NCBI GenBank assembly: GCA_964578885.1
Contig: CAZOEO010000019.1
Span: forward strand, 245-64,244
DNA from: an uncultured Candidatus Competibacteraceae bacterium
Lineage (GTDB): Bacteria > Bacteroidota > Bacteroidia > CAIKAF01
DNA: 64,000 nt
Reading direction: 5' to 3'
Shown: positions 7,087 to 60,579 of the stretch, piece by piece
Layout: each line of letters opens with the position of its first letter
How positions within the stretch are numbered: the first letter of the stretch is position 1
The notes under the pieces: model-generated
The model's database searches: none
Told to the model about the DNA's origin: nothing
Seen by the model: the letters and a program-made list of their open reading frames with translations, nothing else
Program-made: the position numbers and the translations under genes

Positions 7087-7507
7087 AGCGGCAATATTAT
7101 TTCAATTATTTTTTCTTAGCTGTAATTTTCATCCTCACCCGATTTTGTTACAAATGGATTTTAAAAATCAAATAATAACTCTATCGGATACAAATTACTT
7201 TATTTATAAAGTTCAGATAGAAAATGATGCCGCAGATTCTCCTTTTTATATGGCTATATTAAACTCTGAACAACCTGAAGGCCGAATTAGTATTAATTTG
7301 AAGCACAGGAATATTTATAAATACGACATTAAGGGAGATTATAGAAATGCATGTGAACAAGAAATTATTAACTACAACCGCACTTATATAACTGTGTGGG
7401 CATATCCTAAAAAAAGCAATCTGTCCGAAAAGCATTTCTCATTTAACTATTCTTGTAATACTGATACGGTTATAGCCGTAGAATCCGAAAAACGTTCTTT
7501 ACCCTAA
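7076..7507 (+). CDS. Hypothetical protein (143 aa, hydrophobic N-terminus with a Cys); possible orphan immunity-like protein.
   Basis: ORF plus its position after an rhs remnant; no motif. Confidence 0.3.
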   Translation: MATKAAILFQLFFLSCNFHPHPILLQMDFKNQIITLSDTNYFIYKVQIENDAADSPFYMAILNSEQPEGRISINLKHRNIYKYDIKGDYRNACEQEIINYNRTYITVWAYPKKSNLSEKHFSFNYSCNTDTVIAVESEKRSLP

Positions 7508-7607
7508 AGAAAAAGTCCCGCAAGCCGAGGCTATTCTTTTGCTTCCTACTCTGCTTCGCAGAGCCCAAAAAAATGGGGAGGTTACAACCCCTGCTGAAAT
7601 GATTACT

Positions 7608-7793
7608 GTATCCCCCCGAGCAACTACACCTCCAATGTTCCAGGGAACAAGTTTTGTAGTTTGTTGCAAGGATAATCAGCGATTACTTCCAGTACTTTAC
7701 TGAGCCATTTGTCGGGATTTACGCCGTTAAGTTGGCAGTTTGCGAAGAAGGTATAGAACATCGCTGTTCTTTTTGCACCGTTATGTGTGGCAT
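7608..7793 (-). repeat. Inverted partial copy (~186 bp) of the IS66 tnpC 3' end, corresponding to plus-strand 6048-6232. It ends exactly at the palindrome half-site.
   Basis: The reverse complement of 6048-6232 matches 7608-7793; the match is lost beyond both ends. Confidence 0.8.
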
Positions 7794-8279
7794 CCCGTAA
7801 TCAAATAAAATTTTCACCCTAAAATAATTTGTATTGTGTTGCAAAAATACCCTCATTATGTTAGTCGTTTTTTTCCATATCACAAATGGTATAAAGACGG
7901 ATGGTTATCCGAAGATAGCGACAAAAATTTCAAAGCCGAAATAGACCGAATATTTTATGAAATCTCTAGTTACATATTCTAACTGTGCGCATAATGCAAT
8001 TGCATTTGCAAGTACATTTGCTTTTGGCCAACGCTAATGCCATCGCAGAAAAAAGCAAAAGAGCTTGCAAGCCAACGCACAGGACACCTCAGACTAATCA
8101 TAACAACCATACGGATGGAAAGAAGAGTTACCCAAAACAGCCTTTCTCCACAATGAGGTCTGACGTGTTTCAACCAAGTGCAGTACGTCTTTCAACATTT
8201 GTGCTTGGTTGACAGTTTTGTGCTCCAAAATCACCACCATTCCTGCATTTCATCAAATCCCCCCAAAAACCACTCATAT

Positions 8280-9473
8280 TTATTCAAAAGCCACCGGGTA
8301 CACCACCCTATACAATTTAGCTTGCCCCACCGGACCATTATATTCAAAATGAATCAAGCCCTCCAGCTTATTCTCGCTGTTCATCCGAAAATGCCACTTA
8401 TCTACATCATATTTATTGGTCAGATTCCATGCATCCCAACCCAGAAAAATCACCAAAGCCGGCAATTCGTAGGTTTTACCATTTAAATAATTGATGACTA
8501 CAATTTTTTGTACCGATGTGGTTCCGTTCCAGCTATAAGTACCCAGGCTCATGATGATCCATTTTCCGGAAACATTGGAATGAAGAATACTCCAGGACGC
8601 TTCCGGCGCATAATATTCAGAAAGCGTATTTCCTGCACCTACTCGATACAATTTATCGAAAGCCACCAGATAATCATTGTTGATGACATGCAAACGAGCA
8701 CCGCGCATCAAAATGATTTCATCGTAACCGCCCCTGTAAATGCGAGTAAATTGGTTGTCTTTAAACTCATAAAAATTAACCCCCGTGTTGTTGGTATTTT
8801 TATAGATAAATTCATCATTCTTTGATCGGAACACATCTTGTTGTACGGGACTCCATTCTTCGCCATTAGGGATACTTCCAATGATCAAATCCCAGACTTG
8901 CGTACCAGGGTTCCATTTATACAACATGGCGACGCCATCGTCCTGTCGTTTTCCAATCAAGTAAAAATCACTTTGGGTGGCTGCCAACTGAACAGACCAA
9001 AATTTTATCTGAAAAGTTTGTTCAGTATACAAGGAAAATGTCTCAGCATTCGGGTCAAAAAAGCGGGTTTTAATGACATCCACCTGCGAATTCGGACTCG
9101 TGTGTTCTACCTGACAAATGGCCTGATCTGAAGCCACAAAATGCATATAATTAGGAGAAGAAACATAATTAACCCATGTGTCATTTTCGAAACGGGCTAA
9201 ATGATACTGATGTTGGGCACTGGTAAGTACGTGGTAATAATGAAACTCCTTCCCACCTGCATAAAACACTTTCAAAATATCACTTCGGTGATTATCTGCC
9301 AGCGGCATAATGTGGTTATCAGATGGAATGATAAAACGTTCAGTTAATTCAATCACCTGAGGGTCAGGCTGGTTGTTGTTACCACCATTATTCCCCTCAT
9401 CTTTTGAACAAGAAACACCCAAAACCAACAAGAGGCCCACCAAAAAATACCTTAAAGAATTCACCGACTTCAT
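8280..9473 (-). CDS. Hypothetical lipoprotein (397 aa; signal peptide ending ...LGVSC; Asn/Gly-rich linker, then an aromatic-rich domain).
   Basis: Signal peptide with lipobox-like Cys; no family recognised. Confidence 0.5.
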   Translation of the reverse strand: MKSVNSLRYFLVGLLLVLGVSCSKDEGNNGGNNNQPDPQVIELTERFIIPSDNHIMPLADNHRSDILKVFYAGGKEFHYYHVLTSAQHQYHLARFENDTWVNYVSSPNYMHFVASDQAICQVEHTSPNSQVDVIKTRFFDPNAETFSLYTEQTFQIKFWSVQLAATQSDFYLIGKRQDDGVAMLYKWNPGTQVWDLIIGSIPNGEEWSPVQQDVFRSKNDEFIYKNTNNTGVNFYEFKDNQFTRIYRGGYDEIILMRGARLHVINNDYLVAFDKLYRVGAGNTLSEYYAPEASWSILHSNVSGKWIIMSLGTYSWNGTTSVQKIVVINYLNGKTYELPALVIFLGWDAWNLTNKYDVDKWHFRMNSENKLEGLIHFEYNGPVGQAKLYRVVYPVAFE

Positions 9474-9924
9474 TAAATGATGATATAAAATAAACGTTTA
9501 ACCCAAATAAAACCAACTACTATGGATTTAAAAAAATCATAGTAAACGTTTTAATCACTTACAAACAAATATAAGTGACAAAAAGCTCCACTCCAAATAG
9601 GAAAATGGTAACCTCTTCATTTTTAGAATTGGTTGTAAATACACAAATGAAAAAAATCGTCTCGCTGTCAGGAAAAGGAAAACCCTATGGCTCGTGAAAA
9701 ATATTTTTCGGACATACCTTTTCTGGATTGAAAAAGCTTACCAATCCAATCAGATCCCAGGAGAAATGAAGAACACCTCCATTTGAAAAACACATGAAGG
9801 AAAAGTAAAAAGGTAGGAGGAACATTTAAACCGCTAGAGGGCAGACAGGGTCATCACCCATTCAACAGGGCTAAAGAAAGAGGCCAAAACTCCCAAAAGG
9901 AAACAAGCACGGCTATAAAAAAGA

Positions 9925-9962
9925 AAACCCCAAGTGAATACTTGGGGTTAAAAAAACAATCG
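9925..9962 (-). terminator. Rho-independent terminator after rplQ (ccccaagtattcacttgggg + T-run on the minus strand).
   Basis: Hairpin plus U-run immediately 3' of the rplQ stop. Confidence 0.65.
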
Positions 9963-9967
9963 AGATA

Positions 9968-10447
9968 TTATTCAGCAGAGGCCTCAGTGGTATCAGCCGC
10001 AGCAGATTCCACTTTTGCTTTAGCACCACCAGCACGACGGGTACGTTTCTTTGTACCTTCTGACTTTTTGCCGTCTTTGGTATAAGTGGCATTGAAGTCT
10101 ACCAGTTCAATCATGGCCATTTCAGCATTGTCACCAGCGCGAGGTCCCATTTTAATAATACGGGTATAACCGCCAGGACGTGTAGCTACAGCGGCAGCCA
10201 CATCACGGAACAATTCAGTAACTGCTTCCTTGTTTTGCAGGTAGCTGAACACCAAACGACGAGAGTGCGTGGTGTTGTCCTTTGATTTGGTAATCATTGG
10301 CTCCACATACTTACGTAGTTCGCGTGCTTTCGCCACCGTAGTGGTGATACGCTTGTGGGTAATCAAAGAAATCGCCAGGTTGGCTAAAAGGGCCTGCCGA
10401 TGTGCGGCTTTACGACCCAAATGATTCACTTTTCTTCCGTGTCTCAT
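9968..10447 (-). CDS. rplQ: 50S ribosomal protein L17, with a Lys/Ala/Glu-rich C-terminal extension.
   Basis: [25 protein letters not shown]... signature. Confidence 0.95.
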
Positions 10448-35140: not shown

Positions 35141-35677
35141 ATGAATATACGCTCCTTCCTGCTTTGCGGATGGTGGATGATGGCCGCGCAGGCCTACTCC
35201 CAATCCGCATGTCACGCTTTAGCTACGGGCAGTGCGATTGAAATGACTATGGTAGAAGGGACCTTTCTTTTGCCCGGATCTAAGGTGTCGGACGTAACAG
35301 CCAAGTGGGGAAATCCCGATGAAAAAATCGGAAATATCTTCATTTATCGACAACAAGGTTGTTTGGTGTATACAAACCCAGACCACTCCCAAATTATCGC
35401 AATGGTAGGTTCGTGGTTTCCCGGTTACGGAGGCTTTTCACAGCGTATTTTCGGCCTCAGTTTAGGCAGTACCTATCCCAAATGTATTTCACTGCTGGGA
35501 CAGCCCAAATGGCGAAAGCCCCTCGTGGAAAATATTGAAGAAGCATTTTGGACCTGCGGCCCTTATGAAATTCGTTGCGAAATCTGGACGCAAAATGATT
35601 ATGATCCTGATATCGGTGGCAATATTTATGCTGAAACGATCAAGAGAATTCAGGTTCAAAAACCTTGGAAACCTTAA
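35141..35677 (+). CDS. Hypothetical secreted protein (178 aa).
   Basis: Signal peptide; no family recognised. Confidence 0.4.
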   Translation: MNIRSFLLCGWWMMAAQAYSQSACHALATGSAIEMTMVEGTFLLPGSKVSDVTAKWGNPDEKIGNIFIYRQQGCLVYTNPDHSQIIAMVGSWFPGYGGFSQRIFGLSLGSTYPKCISLLGQPKWRKPLVENIEEAFWTCGPYEIRCEIWTQNDYDPDIGGNIYAETIKRIQVQKPWKP

Positions 35678-36360
35678 GTATCCGCGGAAAAATGAAAGCC
35701 CAGTCGTTTGCCGGTGCGTTGAACCAAGAGCGAACTTGTGGCCTGAATATCTGAAATAGTGACCAACTTCACATCATCGTATTGAGGAACCAGCAGGTCG
35801 AAATCCAAGGTGTACAGGACCGTAGATTCCACCACCTTCTTGGCTTCCTCGGGCGTAAGTTTAGCCTGATGAAACTGATTGTACAAAAACCCAAGCTGCC
35901 GCTTTCCTTCGACAAAATAATGCTGGTCTTTGTTGATGAAAATCCGGGCAATCAAATAGCCAATATCTCCGTCACGATTATATAAAATACTATCTGTAAG
36001 AAAGTTATACACATTAATAACAGCACAAAAAGACCTGGTTTCGTCTTCACGGAGATAACCGGTTTGCCAAACTGCATGGCTTCTTTCGAACTGAAAAATG
36101 TTGGTATGAAGCTGAAAAATGAGGGTGTCTCCGGCAATGGTGGCCACCGTTTCCCCATCTCCACGATTCACGGCGTTCAGTTTTAAAGGAAAACTCGTCT
36201 TTCCCTTCAAGTCCGATGCCAATCCATCGACCAGTTGATGTATGGCTTCCCGAATAGAACCGAAAGCGGATTTTCCCACATGATATACTTCCTGCTTAAG
36301 GACACTTTTTTCCGCAAGTACTTGCGCAATTAGTTCCCTTGGCGGCTTGCTTTCAGCCAT
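35674..36360 (-). CDS. Hypothetical protein (228 aa) immediately downstream of proS.
   Basis: ORF, sited 30 nt after the proS stop on the same strand. Confidence 0.4.
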   Translation of the reverse strand: MAESKPPRELIAQVLAEKSVLKQEVYHVGKSAFGSIREAIHQLVDGLASDLKGKTSFPLKLNAVNRGDGETVATIAGDTLIFQLHTNIFQFERSHAVWQTGYLREDETRSFCAVINVYNFLTDSILYNRDGDIGYLIARIFINKDQHYFVEGKRQLGFLYNQFHQAKLTPEEAKKVVESTVLYTLDFDLLVPQYDDVKLVTISDIQATSSLLVQRTGKRLGFHFSADT

Positions 36361-36389: not shown

Positions 36390-37862
36390 TTAGTAAGCCA
36401 GGGCAAAGAGCACCCTTTGACGAGAAGGCTTGCCCGTAAGAATACATGCTCCGTCTTCCAGAGGCTGATCCAATGGAATACAACGAATGGTCGCCTTTGT
36501 GCGATTTTTGATTTCTTCCTCCGTTTCAGCGGTTCCATCCCAATGAGCGGCAATAAATCCACCTTTATGTTCCAGAAGATGCACAAATTCGTCCCATGAA
36601 TTGGCTGGAGTAATATGCTCATTCCGGAAAGTTAGGGCTTTTTGGAACATGGTTTGTTGAATTTCTTCCAGCAAACCTGGTATGGTTTCTTCTATTCCGG
36701 CCAATGGCATGGTAAATTTCTGAAGGATATCCCGCCGGGCTAATTCCACCTGCCCTTTGTCCAAATCACGAGGTCCTACAGCAATGCGAAGGGGAACCCC
36801 CCGGAATTCATATTCAGAAAACTTCCAGCCTGGTTTGCGCTTATCGTCGGCGTCGAATTTCACGCGAATACCCAACTTTTTCAATGCAGCAGTAAGGGCA
36901 TCTCCTACCTCACAAACCCGCTGATATTCTTCATCGTTCTTATAAATAGGAACAATCACCACCTGGATAGGTGCCAGTTTGGGAGGAAGTACAAGTCCCT
37001 GGTCATCGGAATGCACCATGATTAAAGCACCCATCAAACGGGTGGAAACGCCCCAGCTGGTCGCCCAAACGTATTCTTGTTTTCCTTCCTTGTTGGTGAA
37101 TTTTACATCAAAAGCCTTGGCGAAATTTTGCCCAAGAAAATGTGAGGTTCCGGCCTGAAGTGCTTTTCCATCCTGCATCAATGCCTCAATACAATAAGTA
37201 TCCAGAGCACCCGCAAAACGCTCGTTGGGCGATTTCACCCCTTTGATCACAGGAATCGCCAGGACATTTTCGGCGAAATCCGCATACACCTCTAACATCT
37301 GCCGGGTTTCAGCAATGGCCTCTTCTGCTGTTGCGTGAGCGGTATGCCCTTCCTGCCAAAGGAATTCAGCAGTTCGTAAAAAAAGACGGGTACGCATTTC
37401 CCAGCGAACCACATTGGCCCACTGATTCAATAATATAGGAAGGTCCCGATAACTTTGAATCCAGTTCTTGTATGTATTCCAAATGATGGTTTCAGAAGTG
37501 GGCCGAATAATGAGTTCTTCCTCCAATTTGGCATCTTCGTCCACCACTATGCCCTGACCATTGGGATCATTTTTCAGGCGATAGTGTGTGACCACCGCAC
37601 ATTCTTTGGCAAATCCATCTACGTGGCTGGCTTCTTTCGAAAAAAAGGATTTGGGAATAAACAAGGGAAAATAAGCATTCTCATGACCCGTTTCTTTAAA
37701 CCGGGTGTCTAATGCCGCCTGCATCCTTTCCCAAATTGAAAATCCATAAGGCTTTATGACCATGCAGCCACGAACAGCACTATGTTCTGCCAACCCGGCC
37801 CGAAGAACCAAATCGTTATACCATTGTGCGTAATTTTCTTGTCTTGACGTCAGCGCTTCCAC
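36390..37862 (-). CDS. proS: Proline--tRNA ligase (archaeal/eukaryotic-like class II form).
   Basis: 490 aa; conserved ProRS N-terminus and class II motifs. Confidence 0.9.
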
Positions 37863-37948
37863 GGGATTTATTTTAAAGTTGGTACGGTATTTGCGAATCT
37901 AAAACGGAAAAAATTTCGTTCAAAAGTACAAAACCCATCGACTTCCTC

Positions 37949-39244
37949 ATGAATCTGATTCGTCCCATGCTTCTTTTATTTGTTATCCTCCTTGGGACGG
38001 GTTGCGCTTCGACCAAAGAAACCTTTGATTTTGAGGAAGATTCCTATTTCACATTGGCCCAGGCATGGGAAACGGAAAGAAAAAGCAGGGAAATGGTCAT
38101 CTCATTGCCCACAGCCTCCACCTCCGACACCCTTTTCAATCAAAAAAAAACGGATATAAATGGCTATGCCAGAGATGAATATGGTAACATAATTATCCAG
38201 GAAGGCGATGCGCCACAAGCTTTTTCCGAAGAGCAATACCACGATTTTTCTTATGCCGCCAGGGTAAGACGATTTGGAGAAACAAGCGGCGGTTGGAATT
38301 ATTACGACCCCTACTATACCAACCACTATTGGTACGAGCCTCAACCGGCGTTTTTCGGTCAATCGATTTACACCACCTATTCCTGGTGGGGAGGCGCACC
38401 TCTCTATCCCTGGCAATCCACTTATTCCTGGTTTCAACCTTATGCATGGCATGGCAACACATGGATGCACCCGCATGGATTTTACCCGATAACAGGCTGG
38501 GGTTGGTACACGCCTCCGTTTCATCCTGGAAACCCCTTGTATTACAATTCTTTCGACATTCATTCTGTTTATAGCGGTCCCCGGAAATTCAATCGTGGGG
38601 AAAACCAAACCAGCGGCCCCGTAATCATGTCGAGGGTGGCGCCTTCGCACGGAGTAACTCCAAGACCGCGGGAACCCGTCCGTTTGAGTACCTTGCCTGT
38701 AACGCGCACTCCAGCGCCCGGAACGGATCGTAATCCGATGCTACCCAACGCCAATGGGAATCCGGTTCGTCAAACAAACCAACCAACCAGATCGAATTTC
38801 CCTACTTCTCCCGGCGTTACATCGCCCGGCCGAACCCCTTCCGCCAATCCACCGATACAGAACAGTCCGGATGCAGAAATCCTGCGACCGGGATCGCGCA
38901 CCCGCTTCGACAATAGTTCCGACAATGGAATGATTCGGGATGTCCCCACCCGCTCATCCGACAACCAGGGCATCAAAACAAATGACAACGATCCACGAAG
39001 AATTTCTCCACCATCAGACGGAGGGCGCCGAAGAGAAATTTTTCAGGAAGGTTCCAGATCTCCGAGCTGGACGCGACCAGCCACGCCACCTCAACGCAGC
39101 ACACCGGAACGCTATACTGCGCCGACACGATCCAACCCATCGCCCCAATTTTCACCACCGCCAAGACCATCGAGTCCACCACCTATGAGAAGCAGCGGCT
39201 CACCCGGTGCAAGTCCCAGAAGTTCAAGTCCACGCCCAAGATGA
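37949..39244 (+). CDS. Probable lipoprotein with a Trp/Tyr-rich core and a ~230-aa Pro/Ser/Arg/Thr-rich disordered C-terminal tail.
   Basis: Signal peptide ...LLGTGC; aromatic-rich block YSWWGGAPLYPWQSTYSWFQPYAWHGNTWMHPHGFYPITGWGWYTPPF; tail about 40% P/S/R/T. Confidence 0.55.
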   Translation: MNLIRPMLLLFVILLGTGCASTKETFDFEEDSYFTLAQAWETERKSREMVISLPTASTSDTLFNQKKTDINGYARDEYGNIIIQEGDAPQAFSEEQYHDFSYAARVRRFGETSGGWNYYDPYYTNHYWYEPQPAFFGQSIYTTYSWWGGAPLYPWQSTYSWFQPYAWHGNTWMHPHGFYPITGWGWYTPPFHPGNPLYYNSFDIHSVYSGPRKFNRGENQTSGPVIMSRVAPSHGVTPRPREPVRLSTLPVTRTPAPGTDRNPMLPNANGNPVRQTNQPTRSNFPTSPGVTSPGRTPSANPPIQNSPDAEILRPGSRTRFDNSSDNGMIRDVPTRSSDNQGIKTNDNDPRRISPPSDGGRRREIFQEGSRSPSWTRPATPPQRSTPERYTAPTRSNPSPQFSPPPRPSSPPPMRSSGSPGASPRSSSPRPR

Positions 39245-40698
39245 TACGTATTGGCTCATTATTTTTTGGCATTTTTTGCTTGCCGGCAGTCCTTTTGGGA
39301 CAGTATGAAGTGGATGCTTTGCGTTTTAGCCGCTCCACGTTGAACGGAAGCGCCAAATTCATCAGCATGGGTGGTGCCATGGGTGCCGTAGGCGCGGATT
39401 TCTCCGTCATGTCTTCCAACCCGGGCGGATTGGGGCTTTTCAGAAGTTCACAAATTTCTTTTACGCCGGGTTTTAACTTTGCCCAATCGGAAAGCCAGTT
39501 GCAAAACAACGCATATTCAGACCGGCGCTTCGCCTTTCAGTTCGGACAGGTTGGGGGTGTTTTTCATAAAAAGTTACAGCGTCCCTTGCCCATGGGAACG
39601 CAAGGATTCACCTTTGCCATCGGATACAACCGAACCCATTCTTTTAACCGAAGTCTATTTTTTGAAGGCGAAAACAACAGCCATAGCATAGGTGATCTTT
39701 TTCTTCAGCGAGCCAATGGATTACCTGTAGATCAGTTAGATGCGTTTACCGAACGACTCGGATTTGACACCTATCTGCTAGACACCCTTGGTGGAGGACA
39801 AGGCAACCAATACAGCAATCTGGGACTTTTTGCCAACGAAAACAAACTCATGTCGCGACAAATTACGGCCAAAGGATCTTCCGGTGAAATTGGTTTGGCA
39901 GGAGCAGTAAACTTAGGACACAGGCTTTATGTGGGTGCGACCTTGGGAATCGTGCGCTTAGATTATACCGAGACCAGCGAGTACCATGAACGAGATCAGC
40001 AAAATCTGGTTCCCGGTTTCAATCAAGTGATGTTTCGCGAAAACCTCATGGTAGAAGGAACAGGCATTCATGTGAAAGCCGGATTGGTTTGGCGGGTGGC
40101 CGATTGGTTCCGGGTAGGAGCGGCCATTCATTCCCCAACGTTTATGTCCCTGACCGAGCAATACAGCACCGAAATGGTGACGGATTTTGATGTGGGCTCC
40201 TATTCCAGCACTTCGCCTCGTGGAAATTTCGACTACGATTTAGATATGCCCTGGAGATGGAACGCCTCCACAGCCTTTATTATTGCCCAAAAACTCACCT
40301 TGGCCGCCGAATATGAAATGGCGGATTTCTCCAATATTTCCCTACGAAGTTCCGGTTCTTTCTTTATGCCTGTGAATCAATTCATCGACGCTAATTATGG
40401 CCTTTCGCATCATATCCGCCTCGGTGGTGAATTTCGAATTGATCCGTGGAGATTTCGCGCCGGATACCAACATGCCACCGATCCTGTAGTGCAAAATGGC
40501 GGAGTAGATCGAACCATCCAATATTTCACGGCAGGTATTGGATATCGCGCCAAAAAATGGGTGTATTTCGACGCGGCATACGTGTTGCAAAAAACACAAG
40601 GAAGCGAACGTATTTTCAGAGACTTCTCCTCTACCCTACCTGCCATTATTGAACTAAATCAGCACCTGGCACAAGTAACCCTAGGGTTTATTTTTTAA
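39241..40698 (+). CDS. Outer-membrane beta-barrel protein, FadL/OmpP1/TodX-like (485 aa), translationally coupled to the upstream lipoprotein gene by an ATGA overlap.
   Basis: Signal peptide; N-terminal SSNPGGLGLF resembling the FadL hatch NPA/NPG motif; alternating amphipathic strands; C-terminal ...LGFIF aromatic terminus. Confidence 0.55.
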   Translation: MIRIGSLFFGIFCLPAVLLGQYEVDALRFSRSTLNGSAKFISMGGAMGAVGADFSVMSSNPGGLGLFRSSQISFTPGFNFAQSESQLQNNAYSDRRFAFQFGQVGGVFHKKLQRPLPMGTQGFTFAIGYNRTHSFNRSLFFEGENNSHSIGDLFLQRANGLPVDQLDAFTERLGFDTYLLDTLGGGQGNQYSNLGLFANENKLMSRQITAKGSSGEIGLAGAVNLGHRLYVGATLGIVRLDYTETSEYHERDQQNLVPGFNQVMFRENLMVEGTGIHVKAGLVWRVADWFRVGAAIHSPTFMSLTEQYSTEMVTDFDVGSYSSTSPRGNFDYDLDMPWRWNASTAFIIAQKLTLAAEYEMADFSNISLRSSGSFFMPVNQFIDANYGLSHHIRLGGEFRIDPWRFRAGYQHATDPVVQNGGVDRTIQYFTAGIGYRAKKWVYFDAAYVLQKTQGSERIFRDFSSTLPAIIELNQHLAQVTLGFIF

Positions 40699-41104
40699 TG
40701 GTAAGCTGCACCATGCGGTGATTTTGCAGAGAAAAGCTACAGGCAGAAAAATCCGGAGGACCGAATCGGCCGTGTGCATCATTTGAAAAGCCATAGCTCT
40801 CAGTAGGAATGCCTAAGAAATTGGTATCCAATACACCATTTCCATTTTCATCGTGAAAAACGGCCAAAGCATAGGTACCAGGTTTTAAATTTGGAATAGA
40901 TAATACCAAATTGCCCGGACGAGCTGGTTGTTCGGAAGAAGCCACCGCATATGACTTGTCCCGAAAACCATTGGCTTGGTTGTAGACCCCAATCAAAATT
41001 TTTCCTTTGGCCGATGGAATGCCACGCACCTCTACTTTTAATTCAAAAGTCTGGGCCATAAGTGAGCCTCCCAAAAAAATAAACAGGCTTAGTATCGATT
41101 TCAT
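40688..41104 (-). CDS. DUF2141-family secreted protein.
   Basis: AVFHDENGNGVLDTNFLGIPTESYGFSNDAHGRFGPPDF signature of DUF2141. Confidence 0.75.
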   Translation of the reverse strand: MKSILSLFIFLGGSLMAQTFELKVEVRGIPSAKGKILIGVYNQANGFRDKSYAVASSEQPARPGNLVLSIPNLKPGTYALAVFHDENGNGVLDTNFLGIPTESYGFSNDAHGRFGPPDFSACSFSLQNHRMVQLTIKK

Positions 41105-42852
41105 TCCTGATAAAGTGCCTCAATGCGCGCCGCATACCGCTCCATGATGGGCTTGCGCTTCAATTTCAACGTGGGTGTAAGTTCACCACCATCAATGGAA
41201 AATTCCTGAGGAAGCAGGTCAAATTTTTTAACTTGTTCCCATTGTCCAAACTGCGCATTAAGCCCTTGAATTTCTTTTTCAAATAATTGTCGCACAGATG
41301 GATGACCTACTACAGACTCCAGGGTCGGGGCGGGAATACCTTGTTCTTCGCACCATTTTCTTAAAGGCTCAAGGGCTGGAACCACTAAAGCCACCGGAAA
41401 CTTCCGATTTTCTCCCACCACAATGATTTGCTCAATATAAATGGACTCTTTGAACTTATTTTCCATGGGCTGGGGCGCCACATATTTTCCACCGGACGTC
41501 TTAAATACTTCTTTTTTCCGATCGGTAATTTTCAGGAAACCATCTGCGGATAATTCGCCCACGTCACCTGTATAAAACCAACCGTCTTTCAATACTTCAG
41601 CCGTTTGTTCGGGTTTGTTGTAATAGCCCATCATCACGTTTGGACCTTTACACAGAATTTCACCGTCTGCGGCAATTTTCACCTCCACGCCGGTAATCAC
41701 TGGCCCAACTGAACCAAATCTACGGCCTTCTTCCTCAAAACGATTCACCGTAATCACAGGACTTGTTTCCGTAAGCCCATACCCTTCTAATACAGAAATG
41801 CCTGCAGAAGTAAAGACCCTGGCCAACCGCGGTTGCAAGGCGGCGGCACCACTCACAATCACGCCCACATTTCCGCCAAGCGCTTCACGCCATTTACTGA
41901 AAATGAGTTTGTCGGCGATTTTTAAACGGAAATGATACCACCAGCCATTGGACTGCTTAAGTTCGTAGGTATGCCCCAATGCCAGCGCCCAAAAGAACAA
42001 TTTCTTTTTAATGCCGGTAAGGTCATGCCCTTTGGCCACAATTTTATCGTACACTTTTTCCAGTAAACGCGGCACCGTGGTAAACGCATAGGGCTTCACC
42101 TCCTTCAAATTATCGGCAATGGTATCCATGCTTTCTGCATAATAAATGGACGCACCAAGTTTATGGTAGAGATAGCACACCATCCGCTCAAAAATGTGAC
42201 ATAGCGGCAAAAAGCTCAACACGGTTTTTTCCCGAAACATGGGGAAAATGGCGGAACAAGCATTGACGTTGGATAAAATATTGCTGTGACTCAGCATGAC
42301 ACCTTTAGGAAAACCAGTGGTACCGGAAGTGTAAATGAGGGTCATGAGTTGATCCGGCTTTACGGAATCTTTCCGAGCCTGAAGAACATCCGGCGCCGGA
42401 TGCTTTTTTCCCAATTCCAGCAGTTCCTTCCAAAGCGGAAATTCATCTGAGTTTTCAAACACATAAACCGCCACTTCAGGCGCCACGGACTTCACCTTGC
42501 GGGCGAGCTCGGTATTTTGTACAAAAGCGATACGTACCCCTGAATCTTGTAAAATGTAACCAAGGTCGTTTACCGACAAGGTTGGATATAGCGGAACGGT
42601 GATTCCTCCAACCTGGCTGGCGCCGAAATCCACAAAATTCCATTCCGGGCAATTAAAACTCATGATGGCAGCGCGGTCGCCCGGCGCAAAACCCCATTGC
42701 ATAAGGCCGTAACCTAAATCATCTATGATGGTTTGATAATCGGAAATCGTGTACGTGGTCCATTGGCCGTTTCTTTTGCCACCCAATAATATACGATTGG
42801 AAAATTCTGCAGCTGCAAAAGGTATGAGGTCAAAATTTCTGGTTGGTTCCAT
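41101..42852 (-). CDS. Long-chain-fatty-acid--CoA ligase (AMP-dependent synthetase/ligase). Start set at MEPTRNFDL; the track ORF extends 41 codons further.
   Basis: TSGTTGFPKGV AMP-binding motif; YGLTETS; C-terminal LPQEFSIDGGELTPTLKLKR. Confidence 0.85.
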   Translation of the reverse strand: MEPTRNFDLIPFAAAEFSNRILLGGKRNGQWTTYTISDYQTIIDDLGYGLMQWGFAPGDRAAIMSFNCPEWNFVDFGASQVGGITVPLYPTLSVNDLGYILQDSGVRIAFVQNTELARKVKSVAPEVAVYVFENSDEFPLWKELLELGKKHPAPDVLQARKDSVKPDQLMTLIYTSGTTGFPKGVMLSHSNILSNVNACSAIFPMFREKTVLSFLPLCHIFERMVCYLYHKLGASIYYAESMDTIADNLKEVKPYAFTTVPRLLEKVYDKIVAKGHDLTGIKKKLFFWALALGHTYELKQSNGWWYHFRLKIADKLIFSKWREALGGNVGVIVSGAAALQPRLARVFTSAGISVLEGYGLTETSPVITVNRFEEEGRRFGSVGPVITGVEVKIAADGEILCKGPNVMMGYYNKPEQTAEVLKDGWFYTGDVGELSADGFLKITDRKKEVFKTSGGKYVAPQPMENKFKESIYIEQIIVVGENRKFPVALVVPALEPLRKWCEEQGIPAPTLESVVGHPSVRQLFEKEIQGLNAQFGQWEQVKKFDLLPQEFSIDGGELTPTLKLKRKPIMERYAARIEALYQE

Positions 42853-42961
42853 GGCAAACGTTTGTGGTTTGAAGTAGAATGCCGACATTCGAAGGCTCAT
42901 AAAAGTATGAAAACCCCCGTTCTTCGTGAAATCTAACGAAACAAAAAAACTTATATTCTGT

Positions 42962-45409
42962 ATGAAACAAACCAAATTATGGGTTTTTAGTTTAGTAACC
43001 CTGGCGTCTATTACCTTTTTGTATGCACAGCAACCTCTTCGTAATTACGCTACTGATGAAGCGGCGCCCCCAAGAGCACATGAGGTAGATTTTAAAAATC
43101 TTCGCTTAGACGTATCGTTTGAGCCCGTTATAAAAAAAGTGAAAGGAAAAGTGACGCATACCTTTGTACCCTTGCGACAAACGGTAGATTCTTTGTTTTT
43201 GGATGGACCTGGCATCACTTGTACCGAAGCCTTGCTCAATGGAAAATCGGTGCGCATGGAAAAAAGAAACGACGGCTGGATGTTCTACTTTCAACCGGGC
43301 CTGAAGTACGGACAAAGCTCCGAGCTCACCATTTCTTACGAAGCCACCCCCAACAAAGGAATTTATTTTATCGGCTGGGACGATCCCACCGGAAAATGCA
43401 GAAAACAAATTTGGACCCAAGGTCAGGCGGAAGACAACCGATATTGGATTCCCATGTACGACGGACTCAATGACAAAGTTGTATCCGACGTTACAGTGAC
43501 CTTTCCCAAACCTTATTATGTCCTGTCGAATGGCAACCGTGTAGAAAAAAAAGAACTACCGGACGGACAAGTCCGCTGGCGCTATGTTATGCCCAAGCCG
43601 CATGCCACATACCTCATTATGATTGGCATTGGAGAATATCAGGTAGAAACGCGAAAATCCGCTTCCGGGATTCCAATGACCCTGCTCTATTATCCGGATC
43701 AGGCAGATAGGGTGGAAACCACCTACCGCTATAGCGTAGAAATGTTCGACTATTTTGAAAAAGAAATTGGATTCCCATATCCCTGGGGAACTTACGCCCA
43801 GATTCCTGTTCAAGATTTCATGTACGGTGCCATGGAAAACACCACCGCCACTGTATTTGGCGACTTTTTCAACGTGGACAAACGAGGGTACAACGACCGA
43901 AATTATGTAGGCGTAAATGCGCATGAACTGGCGCACCAATGGTTCGGAGATCTAATTACGGCCCGGTCACCAGCCCATCATTGGTTACAGGAAAGTTTTG
44001 CGACTTATTACAATATGTTGTACGAAAGAGAAGCTTTCGGACAGGAATATTTCGACTGGTCAAGACGCAGTGCGGCCCTCAGGGCATTTGGTGCGTCCAA
44101 AGAAGATCTTTTGCCCATTGCGCATTCTCGCGCTGGTTCAGCCCGGTTTTATCCAAAGGGCGCACTGGTTTTGCACATGTTACGGGAAATGATTGGTCGT
44201 GAAGAATTTAACCGATCCATCCTCCATTATTTGCAGGAGCACCAGTTTCAAAATGTAGACAGCCACGACTTATTGAATGCCTTTGCAGAAGCCACCGGAC
44301 ATAGCCTAGATTGGTTTTGGGACCAATGGGTACTGAAAGGTGGTGAACCGGAATTCAAGGTAAGTCACCAGCTAATCTCCATCGATGGAAAAAATCACAT
44401 GGCATTTCAAATACGCCAAGTGCACGGGTTAAACGACTTAAACAGTGTCTTTTCCCTTAAAACCACTGTATCCGTTTACAATGCAGCCGGCGAGCGGTTG
44501 GTTCAGCAAGTCTATGTGAAAGAACGTGAAACCTACGTCACCATGCGCTTACCCGACGGTTTCGTCCCCGCTTTTGGCCTGTTCGACGAAGGGGCCACCC
44601 ATTTGCGGAAGCTTCAATATGAGGGACGAACTCCCGAACAATGGAAAGCGCAAGCGCGCCTGGCTCAAAATGTGCTGGATCGGTATGATGCAGTAGTCGC
44701 ATTACAATCCCAACCCTGGGAAAGTAAAGTGGCGCTTTATTTACCCTTACTGGCAGGAAAAACATATTTCCCCATCAAAGCAGAAATGGCCAAACAAGCC
44801 TTAAAGGCGGCCGAAAAAGATGAGTCGGCCCGCGCCTTTTTCCTAAGCGCACTGATAGATGAAGACCAACAAACCAGAAAAGAAATCCTGCGCCACATGG
44901 GCAGCCCAATGCCTTATATGGCGGACGCTTTGGTGAAACAATTCTCGTGGGACGATGCCAGCTACGACTTACTGGGAATGGCCATGGAAGCGTTGGCAGA
45001 ATTAAACGACGGCCGAATCGACAGTCTGCGGAAAGCAACGGGCTCGTTGTTGGGCAATCGCGGACATCAATACAGAGTCACCTGGTTAGAAGTAGGTGTA
45101 AAAACCAAGCAGGCCGATGCCAACGATGCTTTGGCTGAATTGGTTTTGCGATGCGGTCCGTCCTATGATTTCCTGACTCGCGTGGCCGCCTGGCAAGCGC
45201 TCTTCCGATTGAATCATTTGAACACCCAAATGCTCGATTACGCCCCACAAGCGCTACAATCCAGCAACACACGTTTGTCCGGCCCCATCCGACAAGTTCT
45301 TCGTGATTTTGCCAAACAACATCCTCATGCAAGCACCATCAAAGAATGGATCAACGCCAATGCGAATCATAAAAATCTGATGTGGACCGCCGCTGGTTTG
45401 GAAAAATAA
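42962..45409 (+). CDS. M1-family zinc aminopeptidase (aminopeptidase N-like), secreted. Start set at MKQTKLW (signal peptide).
   Basis: GAMENTT plus HELAHQWFGD(x18)E zinc-binding gluzincin motif. Confidence 0.85.
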   Translation: MKQTKLWVFSLVTLASITFLYAQQPLRNYATDEAAPPRAHEVDFKNLRLDVSFEPVIKKVKGKVTHTFVPLRQTVDSLFLDGPGITCTEALLNGKSVRMEKRNDGWMFYFQPGLKYGQSSELTISYEATPNKGIYFIGWDDPTGKCRKQIWTQGQAEDNRYWIPMYDGLNDKVVSDVTVTFPKPYYVLSNGNRVEKKELPDGQVRWRYVMPKPHATYLIMIGIGEYQVETRKSASGIPMTLLYYPDQADRVETTYRYSVEMFDYFEKEIGFPYPWGTYAQIPVQDFMYGAMENTTATVFGDFFNVDKRGYNDRNYVGVNAHELAHQWFGDLITARSPAHHWLQESFATYYNMLYEREAFGQEYFDWSRRSAALRAFGASKEDLLPIAHSRAGSARFYPKGALVLHMLREMIGREEFNRSILHYLQEHQFQNVDSHDLLNAFAEATGHSLDWFWDQWVLKGGEPEFKVSHQLISIDGKNHMAFQIRQVHGLNDLNSVFSLKTTVSVYNAAGERLVQQVYVKERETYVTMRLPDGFVPAFGLFDEGATHLRKLQYEGRTPEQWKAQARLAQNVLDRYDAVVALQSQPWESKVALYLPLLAGKTYFPIKAEMAKQALKAAEKDESARAFFLSALIDEDQQTRKEILRHMGSPMPYMADALVKQFSWDDASYDLLGMAMEALAELNDGRIDSLRKATGSLLGNRGHQYRVTWLEVGVKTKQADANDALAELVLRCGPSYDFLTRVAAWQALFRLNHLNTQMLDYAPQALQSSNTRLSGPIRQVLRDFAKQHPHASTIKEWINANANHKNLMWTAAGLEK

Positions 45410-46794
45410 AAAATGTTTTACTGTGGGTCATTCCCATGGTCTTACTGGCTTTACCAGTAAGAGCGTATTTATTTAGTGTTTTCGATCATAACGAACACAT
45501 GTACCTCGCTGCCGCCGAAGGGCTGGCCAGCGGAAAAACACTCTACAAAGACTTTGCTTTTCTCCAAATGCCCCTGCAACCTTGGGGCATTTGGTTTGTT
45601 AAGGTTTTGTCTTTCAGTACCTCCTGGATTTGGTCCGGAAAAACTTTGAGTTGGTTGGCCTGGATTGGCGTATGCGTCACCACATTTTTATTGGTTCAAA
45701 AAGGAGAAAAAACCTGGCTTTCGGCCACCCTGGTCGCTCTTTGTGTGGGTTTACACCCAACCGTTCTCCGCTGTGCCATGGAATCCAGCAACTACATCCT
45801 TCCGGCATGGTGCTGTTTGATGGCTTGGTGGAATCAGAAGCACAACGAAAAATCCTGGGGTGCATTTGCCGCCGGATGCTGGATGGCACTGGCTGTGTCT
45901 ACCAAACTTTTTTACCTTGCCTTTCTGCCGTTTATTTTTCTTTCTACTCCGAAAAACAAGAGGTACTGGAGCTTGGCGGGAATCACCATAGGTCTGTGGC
46001 CAGCTTTGTACTATTTGTTTAGATTTCCAGACGATTTTTTCTTTCAGAACTGGACGTTTCATCATATGACTTCGGCTTGGAGGGCATCGCTAAATTCAGG
46101 TACAGGATTCACCTGGATACAAAAACTTCAGTTTTTCAAAGAATGGCTCGCCCACTGGCCCACCGCAGTTTGGATGATGGCCGCTTTGTGGGTTGGTTTT
46201 CAACATGGAAAAAAGCAGGGTTACTGGCAGTTTGGTCTGGGAATGGCGGTGTTTGTTCTGTCCATTTTCGTAGCGGTGTATCCGGCACCGTTATTTGAAC
46301 AATACATGTTGTTGCCATGGTTGGGCGGGGTTTTCCTGCTGTCGCAGGCGCCCAGATTCTCCTTTCGTGTTTGGATAATCCTGGCCTTAGTGCACGTTTG
46401 GTCCGATCCCATGGGCATTTTATATCGTCCGTTCAGAAGTTCATTTGTATCAGAAAGCATCGCCATTGGAGAAAAAATAAAAGCGGAAGGGGCTTCATCA
46501 GATTGGAACGTCGCAGGATTTTCGCCAACCTACGGACTTGAAGCCGGTTTAACGATTCCGGATGTTTGGCGCACAGGCATTTTCCTAAGCCGATTAGATG
46601 AGCGCCTTCATGACGACGAGCGCTGGATTCGGCTAATGGACATGGACACGGCGTTGACAAAAATGCAGCCAGAGGTCATCATCACTGGAGAAGAAGGGGC
46701 TTACGATAATGGATTAGCCTCTTTTGCCCAGACCCATTCATACCGGCTTTTGGAAGGAACCGGCCACCTGAAAGTCTGGATTTTACCCAAATAA
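45382..46794 (+). CDS. Polytopic membrane protein, DUF2029/glycosyltransferase-like (about 10-12 TM helices).
   Basis: Hydropathy only; start uncertain. Confidence 0.45.
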   Translation: MDRRWFGKIKNVLLWVIPMVLLALPVRAYLFSVFDHNEHMYLAAAEGLASGKTLYKDFAFLQMPLQPWGIWFVKVLSFSTSWIWSGKTLSWLAWIGVCVTTFLLVQKGEKTWLSATLVALCVGLHPTVLRCAMESSNYILPAWCCLMAWWNQKHNEKSWGAFAAGCWMALAVSTKLFYLAFLPFIFLSTPKNKRYWSLAGITIGLWPALYYLFRFPDDFFFQNWTFHHMTSAWRASLNSGTGFTWIQKLQFFKEWLAHWPTAVWMMAALWVGFQHGKKQGYWQFGLGMAVFVLSIFVAVYPAPLFEQYMLLPWLGGVFLLSQAPRFSFRVWIILALVHVWSDPMGILYRPFRSSFVSESIAIGEKIKAEGASSDWNVAGFSPTYGLEAGLTIPDVWRTGIFLSRLDERLHDDERWIRLMDMDTALTKMQPEVIITGEEGAYDNGLASFAQTHSYRLLEGTGHLKVWILPK

Positions 46795-59068: not shown

Positions 59069-60579
59069 TTACCAGGATAAAATCACCTGACCATTTCCGG
59101 ATTGGAAACCGGCAGTTTGGGTAGTAGAAGAAGTTCCTGAAGGGTTTACGTATCCGGAACCACCTCCTGCTCCATTAATTTGCATTCCGCCGCCGCCATA
59201 CCAGCCTCCTCCTCCTCCGGTTCCAGAACAGCAGCAGGCGCTATTACTAAGGCCATTTCCGCCCACACCAAATGCACCATTGCCGGCGAAAGCTGCGCCA
59301 GGTGAGCAACCACCATTATTATACCTCCCGCCACTTCCACCAGCAGATTGAGTTCCGCCTTGCGCCCAGTTTCCTGCACCCAAAGTAGAGCCCTGACCAC
59401 CTGTTAATCCGCCTCCTGCTCCACCATTTCCCTGAGCTCCGCCTCCGCCACCGCCAGCAACCACGATGCGATCATTCAAACTTTGGCCTCCACGACGTAA
59501 ATCTGAAGCACCGCCGCCACCGCCGCCAGATACAACCCCGCTACCTCCGCCATTCCACCCAGCCGCTTCCAATGGATTGGGTGTGCCACCTACGTATACG
59601 AACAACGTTTCACCCGGAGTTACCGCTAAAGTGGTTTGAACACGACCTCCCAAGCCCCCTGCACCGCTTCCAGAATTACCTGTTCCACCTTGTGCTCCCC
59701 TTACATCTACCTGCAAAGAGGTAACACAAACCGGCACGACAAAAGTTTGAGCGTTTCCTGTAAAATTAAATGTTTGGGACTGGCCCATGGGCATGGCTGG
59801 GCAATTTTGTATCGTTATATTTTGAGACTGTGTGGCCGTGCAACCCAACCCATCTGTTACGGTAAGAGAAATGGTATAACTACCAGTAGAACCATATGTA
59901 AAGCTAGGATTTTGAGTTGTGGAAGAAGATGGCGTGGCACCTGTGGCTGTCCAGGCATAAGTGAGTCCAGGACCAGCCGGGCCAGTAGCCTGAAAGGGTG
60001 CATTCAGGATAGCCGTAGTGCCGGGCAGAGTAAACGTGGCCGAAGGTGGATTCGGGCAAAGAATCGCCGTAACTTGCTGTGTGGTGGAATCTTTACACCC
60101 AGAGGCATCGGAAACGACCAATTTTAAAGAATAGGTCCCGGCTACGCTGTAGAAAAAGTAGGTTGCGCAGCAACAGAGGTCACCGGAGAAGCACCAACGG
60201 CGGTCCATTGATAAGTAAGTCCGGGAGCGGATGGTGCTGTTACCTGGAAACTACTATTTACGACGACCGAAGAAGGTGCAGAAAAAGTGGCGGGAGGTGG
60301 CGCTGGGCAATTACAATACACATGTTGCCATCCGGAAGGCATAAATATGTCGATACAGCCATCTGTTGTATTGTATACCACCAGCCCATGAGCAGGATTG
60401 GAAATGGCATTTCGTTCCGTAAGGGTAAGTCGTGGTGGTAAAAAGCCTTGCTGATTGCCACCAATATCTAAAGCGGCTGAAGGATGAGGCGAATTGGTAT
60501 GAATACCTACCGATTGAGCAAAAAGCTCGCAAGGAAGTATTCCTAATAAGCAAAACAACAAGCATCGAAACGTCATCAT
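59069..60579 (-). pseudogene. Secreted protein with two PKD-like Ig repeats and a ~230-aa glycine-rich C-terminal domain, split into two ORFs (60142..60579 and 59069..60208) by a single frameshift at an A5 run around 60153-60157.
   Basis: ORF2 ends ...AAQPTFSTA* and ORF1, in the adjacent frame, continues CATYFFYSVAGTYSLKLVVSD across the same nucleotides. The signal peptide exists only on ORF2. Confidence 0.6.

Follow-up and report, generated by a model that had tools for sequence, protein, structure and literature searches.

Recent cryo-electron microscopy has shown that Bacteroidota reuse FadL-like outer-membrane β-barrels as partners of lipoproteins in the β-barrel assembly machinery (BAM) and in the T9SS (type IX secretion system). 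The BamG-BamH pair (PMC12611786, PMC12578637; PDB 9hiv, 9hjm, 9n2d) combines such a barrel with a folded two-domain surface lipoprotein that carries an export signal; the paralogues BamG2 and BamH2 are encoded by adjacent genes as well, and PorV and PorQ are further FadL-like barrels of the phylum that bind partner proteins. In Treponema pallidum, three of the five FadL orthologues carry periplasmic C-terminal extensions, and the hatch motifs read NPA or NAA (PMC8407342). For Flavobacterium johnsoniae, a study of TamL mentioned a 'likely FadL homolog', Fjoh_4941, together with the adjacent lipoprotein Fjoh_4940, and proposed 'a functional link' between them from their proximity alone (PMC12045153). 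Here we analyze a locus of this kind in a stretch of 64,000 nucleotides (nt) from an uncultured bacterium (hereafter the window; positions 245 to 64,244 of contig CAZOEO010000019.1, assembly GCA_964578885.1), in which the gene for a mostly disordered lipoprotein of an unannotated Bacteroidota family, 431 amino acids (aa) long and termed X (37949..39244, + strand), is followed by the gene for a 485-aa FadL/Toluene_X-family outer-membrane β-barrel (39241..40698, +). Both genes were taken from the list of open reading frames (ORFs), and the barrel was assigned by Pfam, AlphaFold2, and Foldseek.

The supplement of the TamL study lists Fjoh_4939 as proline-tRNA ligase, Fjoh_4940 (A5FA28) as a signal peptidase II (SPII) 'periplasm-facing lipoprotein, function unknown', and Fjoh_4941 (A5FA29) as a signal peptidase I (SPI) barrel of the OMPP1/FadL/TodX family (PMC12045153). 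This triad stands in the identical order, thus we take the window pair as the orthologue of Fjoh_4940/Fjoh_4941, with which it also shares the combination of a lipoprotein lacking an export signal and a FadL/TodX barrel. Both F. johnsoniae proteins were detected in membranes, Fjoh_4940 with about 46 spectral counts and beside BamG in the abundance list, and both rose upon depletion of the outer-membrane homeostasis factor TamL, Fjoh_4941 by 5.6-fold and Fjoh_4940 by 2.6-fold (PMC12045153). The bioRxiv version of the same study places Fjoh_4940 among the lipoproteins without an export signal and reports Fjoh_4941 in vesicles, where Fjoh_4940 was not found. BamG and BamH of F. johnsoniae are encoded by Fjoh_1412 and Fjoh_0823, respectively, and are therefore distinct from Fjoh_4941 and Fjoh_4940; the text supplements of the F. 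johnsoniae BAM paper contain no mention of the latter two. In the literature searched, the two proteins appear in the TamL paper alone and in passing, with no function, structure, or mutant given there. An earlier sequence-only reading of this DNA had held that the pair matches no named system; this stands for X, which lies outside any named family, and needs amending for the pair. The FadL family is known and the barrel is a new clade of it, X belongs to a large unannotated family of unusual design, and the pair as such has been noticed once in passing (PMC12045153).

Gene order and conservation of the pair

X and the barrel constitute a genuine two-gene outer-membrane module that occurs Bacteroidota-wide beside proS, the gene for prolyl-tRNA synthetase. 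Seen from X, the barrel gene lies immediately downstream in 63 of the 71 loci with enough sequence, and proS is found upstream and divergent in 74 of the 76 loci with room for it; the proS-X linkage is thus tighter than the X-barrel linkage. These loci come from a genome scan with the conserved core of X as the query and one genome per species, which returned 135 confirmed matches and from which 80 loci were retained; the narrow core pattern skewed the matches to uncultured genomes, and no model organisms were returned. Seen from the barrel, for which over 245 homologues (475-520 aa) were found in genomes and metagenomes of Bacteroidota, the order proS (divergent)-X-barrel is present in all 10 contexts analyzed, whose barrels range from 90% down to 31% identity. 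The gene between proS and the barrel in these 10 contexts has no Pfam match and spans 437-795 codons, and its products are homologues of X. The distance from the stop of X to the start of the barrel has a median of 45 nt (range -4 to 325 nt) and lies between -4 and about 100 nt in most loci. Both views, well beyond what chance would give, bear out the earlier suggestion that the lipoprotein and the barrel belong together.

In the window, the stop codon of X overlaps the start codon of the barrel as ATGA (39241..39244, +; the DNA reads ...CCA AGA TGA, with the ATG at 39241), which confirms the overlap noted from the sequence. The divergent neighbour proS (36390..37862, -), recognized by ProRS Pfam domains in every related context, serves here as a conserved landmark with no demonstrated functional part. 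The two divergent genes are separated by an 86-bp intergenic region (37863..37948) that presumably holds both promoters; its single weak sigma-70-like match, on the minus strand, was no better than chance. An Rfam family search yielded no family, and no terminator-like sites were found in the scanned segment 37700-41200. No functional reason for the tight linkage of proS and X is apparent; the tail of X is Pro-rich in the lineage of the window, but not generally.

The loci from the X scan are labelled Bacteroidales, Flavobacteriales, Lentimicrobiaceae, and Bacteroidia, to which the barrel-side contexts add Marinifilum and Saprospirales. Three records (L011, L012, and L020) are labelled 'Candidatus Competibacteraceae', a gammaproteobacterial group, yet they carry the Bacteroidota-type proS-X-barrel locus, and L011 is the closest relative of the window; these labels are probably taxonomic misassignments or reflect mis-binned contigs. 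The eight loci in which X has no adjacent barrel (L034, L035, L036, L044, L052, L057, L074, and L079) are mostly from rumen and gut Bacteroidales in which 'C-KLESL(T/S)' follows the lipid-bearing Cys. proS is kept in five to seven of them: L044 is without proS, and the upstream room is too short in L057 and L079. In L034, a small lipoprotein-like ORF and the gene of a 589-aa signal-peptide protein follow X in place of the barrel.

Sequence and predicted structure of the two proteins

Within the FadL family, the barrel constitutes a clade of its own. It matches the Pfam family Toluene_X/FadL (PF03349) at 58.4 bits (cut-off 29.7) over residues 219-454, and the same family is precomputed on many of its homologues. 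The AlphaFold2 model of the barrel is confident, with a mean predicted local distance difference test (pLDDT) of 91 and a predicted template modelling score of 0.85, and consists of N-terminal helices followed by long β-strands; DSSP assigns about 16 strand segments, in which broken strands are not told apart, whereas the solved members of the family have 14 strands. The most conserved block comprises the mature N-terminus and the hatch (residues 21-68, Q21-YEVDALRFS...MGGAMGAVGADFSVMSSNPGGLGLF; 39301..39444, +), and the hatch is modelled as helices at residues 22-30, 38-42, 56-59, and 61-66, with pLDDT values of about 89-97 over residues 22-66. Among 37 homologues, Q21, R28, G51, N60, and P61 are invariant and D25, L27, S30, G36, A38, and R39 nearly so, which gives the family consensus Q-x3-DALRFS...GTARF..MGGAFGA.GADFS..S.NPAG. 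The 'SSNPGG' hatch motif noted earlier is thus confirmed; its N60-P61 pair is the invariant part, and the third residue is A in most of the 37 sequences and G in the window, that is NP(A/G).

Relationships to solved structures were sought at the levels of profile and fold. The single barrel sequence hit no PDB chain at E <= 1, and a profile of the hatch only gave chance matches, whereas a 37-sequence profile of the barrel detected TbuX (4.9e-9), FadL of Pseudomonas aeruginosa (1.8e-5), and CymD (9.5e-4), with no BamG or PorV chain at E <= 10. Foldseek against the PDB placed 27 FadL-family chains among the 50 matches listed, all with probability 1.0, similar scores, TM (template modelling) scores of 0.5-0.66, and identities of 10-16%; they comprise BamG from Bacteroides thetaiotaomicron, Porphyromonas gingivalis, and F. 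johnsoniae, FadL of Escherichia coli, the P. aeruginosa FadL homologue, TbuX, CymD, and TodX. Other barrel classes scored far worse, and none of the 50 matches listed was PorV. Since BamG has this fold but does not transport, fold alone cannot separate a transporter from a scaffold. Compared with FadL, TodX, TbuX, and CymD in particular, the window barrel has the Pfam match, the profile matches to TbuX, FadL, and CymD, the fold (probability 1.0, TM 0.5-0.65), and the NP(A/G) hatch in common, but it is 11-16% identical to them, is about 40-70 residues longer, and has a family-specific hatch motif (Q-x3-DALRFS...GTARF..MGGAFGA.GAD) with no PDB match. It also has a dedicated conserved partner gene, while the canonical transporters have none. 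In a hand alignment to FadL of E. coli, the window barrel is presumably about one residue longer before 'FS' and has about six extra residues before NPA. If the barrel works like FadL, it would transport hydrophobic substrates through a lateral opening at a kink in strand S3.

An assignment of the barrel to PorV or PorQ was considered and rejected on the NCBIfam scores, which are far below the cut-offs: PorV_fam (of the NF033709/NF033710 family set) reaches 32.2 against 90 over residues 348-458, and T9SS_OM_PorV reaches 13.7 against 250. The sequence-only reading had named a non-transport family, PorV- or OmpA-like, and a pair that does not recur in other genomes as the outcomes that would speak against it; the barrel was modelled as a FadL-family member and as neither of these, and the pair co-occurs widely.

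X and ten other members of its family have no match in Pfam or NCBIfam. The family is large: an exhaustive HMMER search of 1.84 billion representative sequences found 781 homologues at E <= 1e-3, 510 at E <= 1e-10, and 134 at E <= 1e-30, and all cluster members looked up are unnamed or named 'hypothetical protein'. A word-seeded protein search recovered just nine homologues, with identities from 99% down to 27%, and a 26-sequence profile of the core recovered five fragments, since both evidently handle the composition badly; the X profile against the PDB gave low-complexity matches only. The architecture described by the sequence-only reading, a 431-aa lipoprotein with a signal peptide, a Trp/Tyr block at residues 144-199, and a Pro/Ser/Arg/Thr-rich tail, is present as stated. 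The N-terminus MNLIRPMLLLFVILLGTGC is the signal peptide and is followed by the lipobox Cys19 (...LLGTG-C19); a regular-expression search across homologues delimits this segment (MNLIRPMLLLFVILLGTG-C19; 37949..38005, +) and finds signal peptide and Cys in about 65 of the 74 homologues, with the Cys invariant in alignment A6. The Saprospirales homologue in L091 (3520-4899) has an ordinary SPI-type signal (…TTALA/QHDD) without a lipobox Cys and ends in -SSRRGN, and the lipobox Cys is apparently missing from the homologous fragment P0133 too.

The anchor is followed by an acidic polar linker (residues 20-91; 38006..38221, +), which in the window has a net charge of about -10 and the motifs 'EEDSYF' and 'GNIII'. 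Across the family, it is polar and acidic, spans 70-100 residues, and contains a 'DDxYF' motif; alignments A1 and A6 show C19, D31, Y33, and N80 as invariant or almost invariant. The aromatic core (residues 92-212; 38222..38584, +), delimited from the alignments, contains YHDFSYAARVRRF, WNYYDPYYTNHYWY, and FGQSIYTTYSWWG, a variable Trp/Tyr/Gly/Pro block, and YYNSFD...GPR; residues 100-219 hold 36 Tyr, Trp, and Phe. Its invariant columns are Y97, D99, Y102, R105, R107, R108, F109, Y118, Y119, D120, P121, T124, N125, G137, S139, and Y141. The cores of the family (Y 19%, W 7%, G 11%, N 12%) follow a common order of DDYYDYxYxxRxRRF, (W)(N/G)YYDPY(Y/F)TNxYWY, GxS(I/V)YxxYxWW, a variable stretch rich in Tyr, Trp, Gly, and Asn, and usually YYNSYD...YGPR. 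We propose as the family signature D-Y-Y-D-Y-x-Y-x-x-R-x-R-R-F...(W/L)-(N/G)-Y-Y-D-P-Y-(Y/F)-T-N-x-Y-W-Y...G-x-S-(I/V)-Y-x-x-Y, combined with a low-complexity tail, a basic C-terminus, and a location between proS and the barrel gene; X of the window carries it as YHDFSYAARVRRF...WNYYDPYYTNHYWY...FGQSIYTTYSWWG and ends in ...PRPR.

The remainder of the protein is a cationic low-complexity tail (residues 213-431; 38585..39241, +), identified by composition and predicted disorder and ending in -SPRPR. In the window, Pro, Ser, Arg, and Thr are abundant in it, aromatic residues are almost absent, and the net charge is positive, with the end ...SSSPRPR. The tails of the family comprise 180-500 residues (S 19.5%, N 16.6%, T 9.6%, P 9.1%, R 8.5%) and have a median net charge of +17. 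Of 74 homologues, 65 (88%) terminate in Arg and four in Lys, and 47 have 'RR' as the final pair, whereas Arg and Lys together make up about 10% of the tail overall. A conserved island within the tail, RRREIFQEGSRSPSW (residues 360-374; 39026..39070, +), has F365 and R370 invariant in A6, the alignment of the window's subfamily, and the motif F..GS[RT][ST] occurs in nine of the 27 tails that could be delimited. Tails often hold lineage-specific tandem repeats, for instance NRQNYTPQ (L009), a roughly 29-residue unit, SRVNDKTSTPTNNN.NRVNGTTTPSS.D (L034), and NNTPRNYETPR (L092), with a further case in L008, and yet all of them retain the composition, the charge, and the basic C-terminus; no DNA tandem repeat was found in X of the window. 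O-glycosylation sequons (D-[ST]-[AILVMT]) were considered as a feature of X and discarded, as they are fewer than expected by chance (0.5 versus 1.3 per protein).

For X alone, in contrast to the barrel, AlphaFold2 predicted no fold: the mean pLDDT is 35, with values below 50 for residues 84-403 and of about 25 in the core, and structure is limited to the signal peptide and one short helix, a result weakened by the shallow nine-sequence alignment from which it was obtained. The core is strongly conserved and yet has no predicted fold of its own, which suggests that it folds on a partner. The orientation of X was assessed by the criterion for Bacteroidota surface lipoproteins, namely at least two acidic residues among the six positions that follow the lipid-bearing Cys (PMC12578637). 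X of the window has ASTKET at these positions, with one acidic residue, and all 74 homologues have none or one. The export signal is therefore missing, and X is predicted to reside in the inner leaflet of the outer membrane, where it probably faces the periplasm.

Candidate roles of the module

The model that we tentatively favor is that X is docked on the periplasmic side of the barrel and that the pair takes part in the traffic of hydrophobic molecules or lipids. X would sit in the inner leaflet of the outer membrane facing the periplasm, and its aromatic block, about 70-100 residues from the anchor, would fold on the periplasmic face of the barrel or on the inner-leaflet rim. The FadL-like barrel would take in hydrophobic molecules (fatty acids, lipids) from the extracellular side and release them sideways into the membrane, with X as their periplasmic acceptor or coupler, and the basic tail of 200-500 residues could reach through the peptidoglycan towards the inner membrane. 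Besides such traffic, the module may thus serve outer-membrane lipid homeostasis. On the side of the barrel and the locus, the model is supported by the short same-strand gaps, the proS-X-barrel synteny, the Pfam match, the confident FadL-like model with hatch helices, the profile matches to transport-type members, the fold matches to FadL, TodX, and TbuX, and the invariant N60-P61; on the side of X, it is supported by the lack of an export signal, the periplasm-facing class of Fjoh_4940, the conserved core combined with a turnover-prone tail, and the enrichment of C-terminal Arg over the rest of the tail. The link to lipids is a modest one and draws on the profile affinity to transport-type members, the induction upon TamL depletion, an Aas/FadD-like neighbour in some genomes, and the precedent of T. 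pallidum, in which a barrel with a periplasmic appendage is proposed to pass hydrophobic nutrients onward (PMC8407342). The treponemal appendage is helical, TPR-like (tetratricopeptide repeat), and part of the same polypeptide, whereas X is a separate, disordered aromatic/cationic lipoprotein.

Several observations weigh against this model. The chains at the top of the Foldseek matches are those of BamG, level with FadL, and X alone has no predicted fold, although the alignment behind this held only nine sequences. X occurs without an adjacent barrel in eight of 71 loci and may therefore have a role independent of it. Lipid anchoring is not universal in the X family, as the Saprospirales homologue shows. 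Acyl-activating neighbours are rare, with a FadD-like gene within 5 kb in four of the 80 loci, and the housekeeping-like context (proS, the ribosomal operon, secY, rpoA) fits a structural role in the envelope equally well. Finally, the orthology of the window pair with Fjoh_4940/Fjoh_4941 is inferred from locus-tag order and annotation, which limits what the F. johnsoniae data can contribute.

Some of the same observations would be explained if the barrel is mainly a membrane anchor and X is the active component, an outer-membrane-anchored, disordered cationic spacer that binds the peptidoglycan or the inner membrane by its tail and C-terminal Arg-Arg or senses the state of the envelope; we regard this as a serious alternative, although a less likely one than the docking model. 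X would then stand in for the connectors between outer membrane and cell wall, and the arrangement would be modelled on BamG-BamH, PorQ-PorZ, and PorV-PorU. FadL-like barrels are known as non-transport scaffolds in Bacteroidota (PMC12611786, PMC12578637), the top structural matches of the window barrel are BamG of B. thetaiotaomicron, P. gingivalis, and F. johnsoniae, and X persists in the eight loci without an adjacent barrel, beside proS in five to seven of them. The tails are spacer-like in that they keep composition, charge, and a basic C-terminus while sequence and repeats change, the spectral counts of Fjoh_4940 are about equal to those of BamG, both F. johnsoniae proteins become more abundant when TamL depletion stresses the envelope, and the genomic context is of the housekeeping type. 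On the other hand, the sequence profile detects transport-type FadL proteins and not BamG, the conserved NP(A/G) hatch motif is a feature of the transport family, and no peptidoglycan-binding domain is detectable with Pfam or NCBIfam in X and ten members of its family.

The remaining explanations are all improbable to different degrees. The sequence-only reading had viewed X as a sticky surface lipoprotein, exported or displayed through or beside the barrel and capturing hydrophobic or aromatic substrates or mediating adhesion. The gene pair is indeed conserved, an aromatic-rich X could bind hydrophobic ligands, and BamH sets the precedent of a lipidated N-terminus held by a FadL-like barrel, in a groove at the cell surface; however, the zero to one acidic residues after the Cys in X and its 74 homologues speak against surface exposure, as do the periplasm-facing class of Fjoh_4940 and its absence from the vesicles that held Fjoh_4941 in the bioRxiv version of the TamL study. 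Moreover, the lumen of the barrel is modelled as filled by its own hatch (residues 22-66), which leaves no obvious path for a protein, and the Saprospirales homologue is without lipidation, so that we consider such surface display improbable. Slightly less probable still is the explanation that X and the barrel are neighbours merely through ancient gene order and have unrelated functions. The tighter linkage of X to proS (74/76) than to the barrel (63/71), for which no shared function is inferred, and the eight loci with X and no barrel would agree with it, but both genes lie on one strand, at a spacing of -4 to about 100 nt in most loci, no terminator-like site lies in the scanned region, both products are outer-membrane proteins, and the two are co-regulated upon TamL depletion in F. 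johnsoniae. The least probable explanation, and a very unlikely one, is that the barrel is the organism's BamG or BamG2, or PorV or PorQ of the T9SS, and that X is a BamH-like or cargo partner. BamG chains rank first in Foldseek and there is the weak PorV_fam match of 32 bits, but the latter and T9SS_OM_PorV are far below their cut-offs, PorV is missing from the 50 matches listed, no T9SS genes lie in the conserved neighbourhood, and the profile finds no BamG at E <= 10. A counterpart of the conserved N-terminal extension of about 10-12 residues that passes through the lateral opening of BamG is not evident from the hand alignment of the window barrel, and BamG chains comprise 390-406 residues versus 464 in the mature window barrel. 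We reject the identification of the pair with BamG/BamH, as those are encoded by other genes in F. johnsoniae (Fjoh_1412 and Fjoh_0823), the profile does not match, and X, disordered and without an export signal, is unlike the folded surface lipoprotein BamH.

Outer-membrane lipoproteins with a flexible segment that extends across or into the periplasm are familiar from E. coli, where LpoB, RcsF, and Lpp are organized in this way and Lpp has a basic end. X has no sequence relationship to them, its tail is 4-10 times longer, its conserved part adjoins the anchor where theirs is distal, and it terminates in Arg, not in the cross-linking Lys of Lpp. We know of no Lpp-type tether in Bacteroidota. 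It is a bold and doubtful idea that X represents a new class of abundant, phylum-wide, lipid-anchored disordered protein, in which a Tyr/Trp 'sticker' block is combined with an Arg-bearing polar tail and an obligatory C-terminal Arg, and which, docked on a FadL-like channel, would span the cell wall between the outer and the inner membrane as a bridge of flexible or condensate-like nature. If true, this would provide Bacteroidota with a dedicated periplasmic route for fatty acids or lipids, or with a tether between outer membrane and cell wall; neither of these two mechanisms is so far described for FadL-family proteins.

After BamG-BamH, a further pair of FadL-like barrel and lipoprotein will not shock the specialist. 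Conserved across orders, expressed in F. johnsoniae, and responsive to a defect in outer-membrane homeostasis, it offers a concrete lead that spans the phylum and is open to experiment: F. johnsoniae is amenable to genetics, depletion systems exist, and the candidate roles comprise lipid uptake, envelope tethering, and others. What the pair does thus bears on how the outer membrane is built and fed in a phylum of medical and ecological importance.

Neighbouring genes and the rest of the window

The barrel gene of the window is followed by a DUF2141 gene (40688-41104, -) and a gene for an AMP-binding acyl-CoA synthetase (41101-42975, -), which the sequence-only reading had seen as fitting lipid or aromatic substrate handling. 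Both genes are present, but the neighbourhood is not conserved: a DUF2141 gene is near X in one of the 80 loci and a FadD-like gene in four, the two together are conserved in the closest relatives only, and the constant neighbour is proS. In several lineages, the barrel is directly followed by Zn-ribbon, NIF3, and lpxK genes; in the window, NIF3 is displaced by 7 kb, therefore DUF2141 and the synthetase look like a lineage-specific insertion, and we rejected them as parts of the module. A different situation is seen in L009, where an Aas-like gene with AMP-binding, PP-binding, and acyltransferase domains (7486-9993) immediately follows the barrel in the same orientation. FadD-like/AMP-binding matches occur at the same position in L063, L073, and L082 (about 7200-10100, +), and these loci belong to one Bacteroidales clade, in which this gene is the sole recurrent lipid-metabolism neighbour of the module.

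On the other side of the locus, a 228-aa protein without Pfam or NCBIfam matches is encoded directly downstream of proS (35674-36360, -). Its homologues occupy the same position in 18 of the 80 genome loci, genes of 227-232 aa stand there in L001, L003, L007, L008, and L092, and it is thus a second conserved unknown of the neighbourhood. The wider context in the window is of the housekeeping type, with proS, a ribosomal protein operon, secY, rpoA, and fusA, and a complete IS66-family transposase gene (DDE_Tnp_IS66, 316 bits; 4622-6214, +) lies within this region. Three large ORFs have no Pfam match, namely 5-1738 (+, 577 aa), 8280-9473 (-, 397 aa), and 45382-46794 (+, 470 aa); the product of the last one is hydrophobic by eye, with many apparent membrane-spanning stretches, and its gene overlaps the end of an M1 peptidase gene by 28 nt. 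Elsewhere, a 379-aa protein (59069-60208, -) has PKD domains together with a glycine-rich domain of the ALK/LTK type (PF12810, 72 bits), a Pfam family whose name derives from animal receptor kinases.

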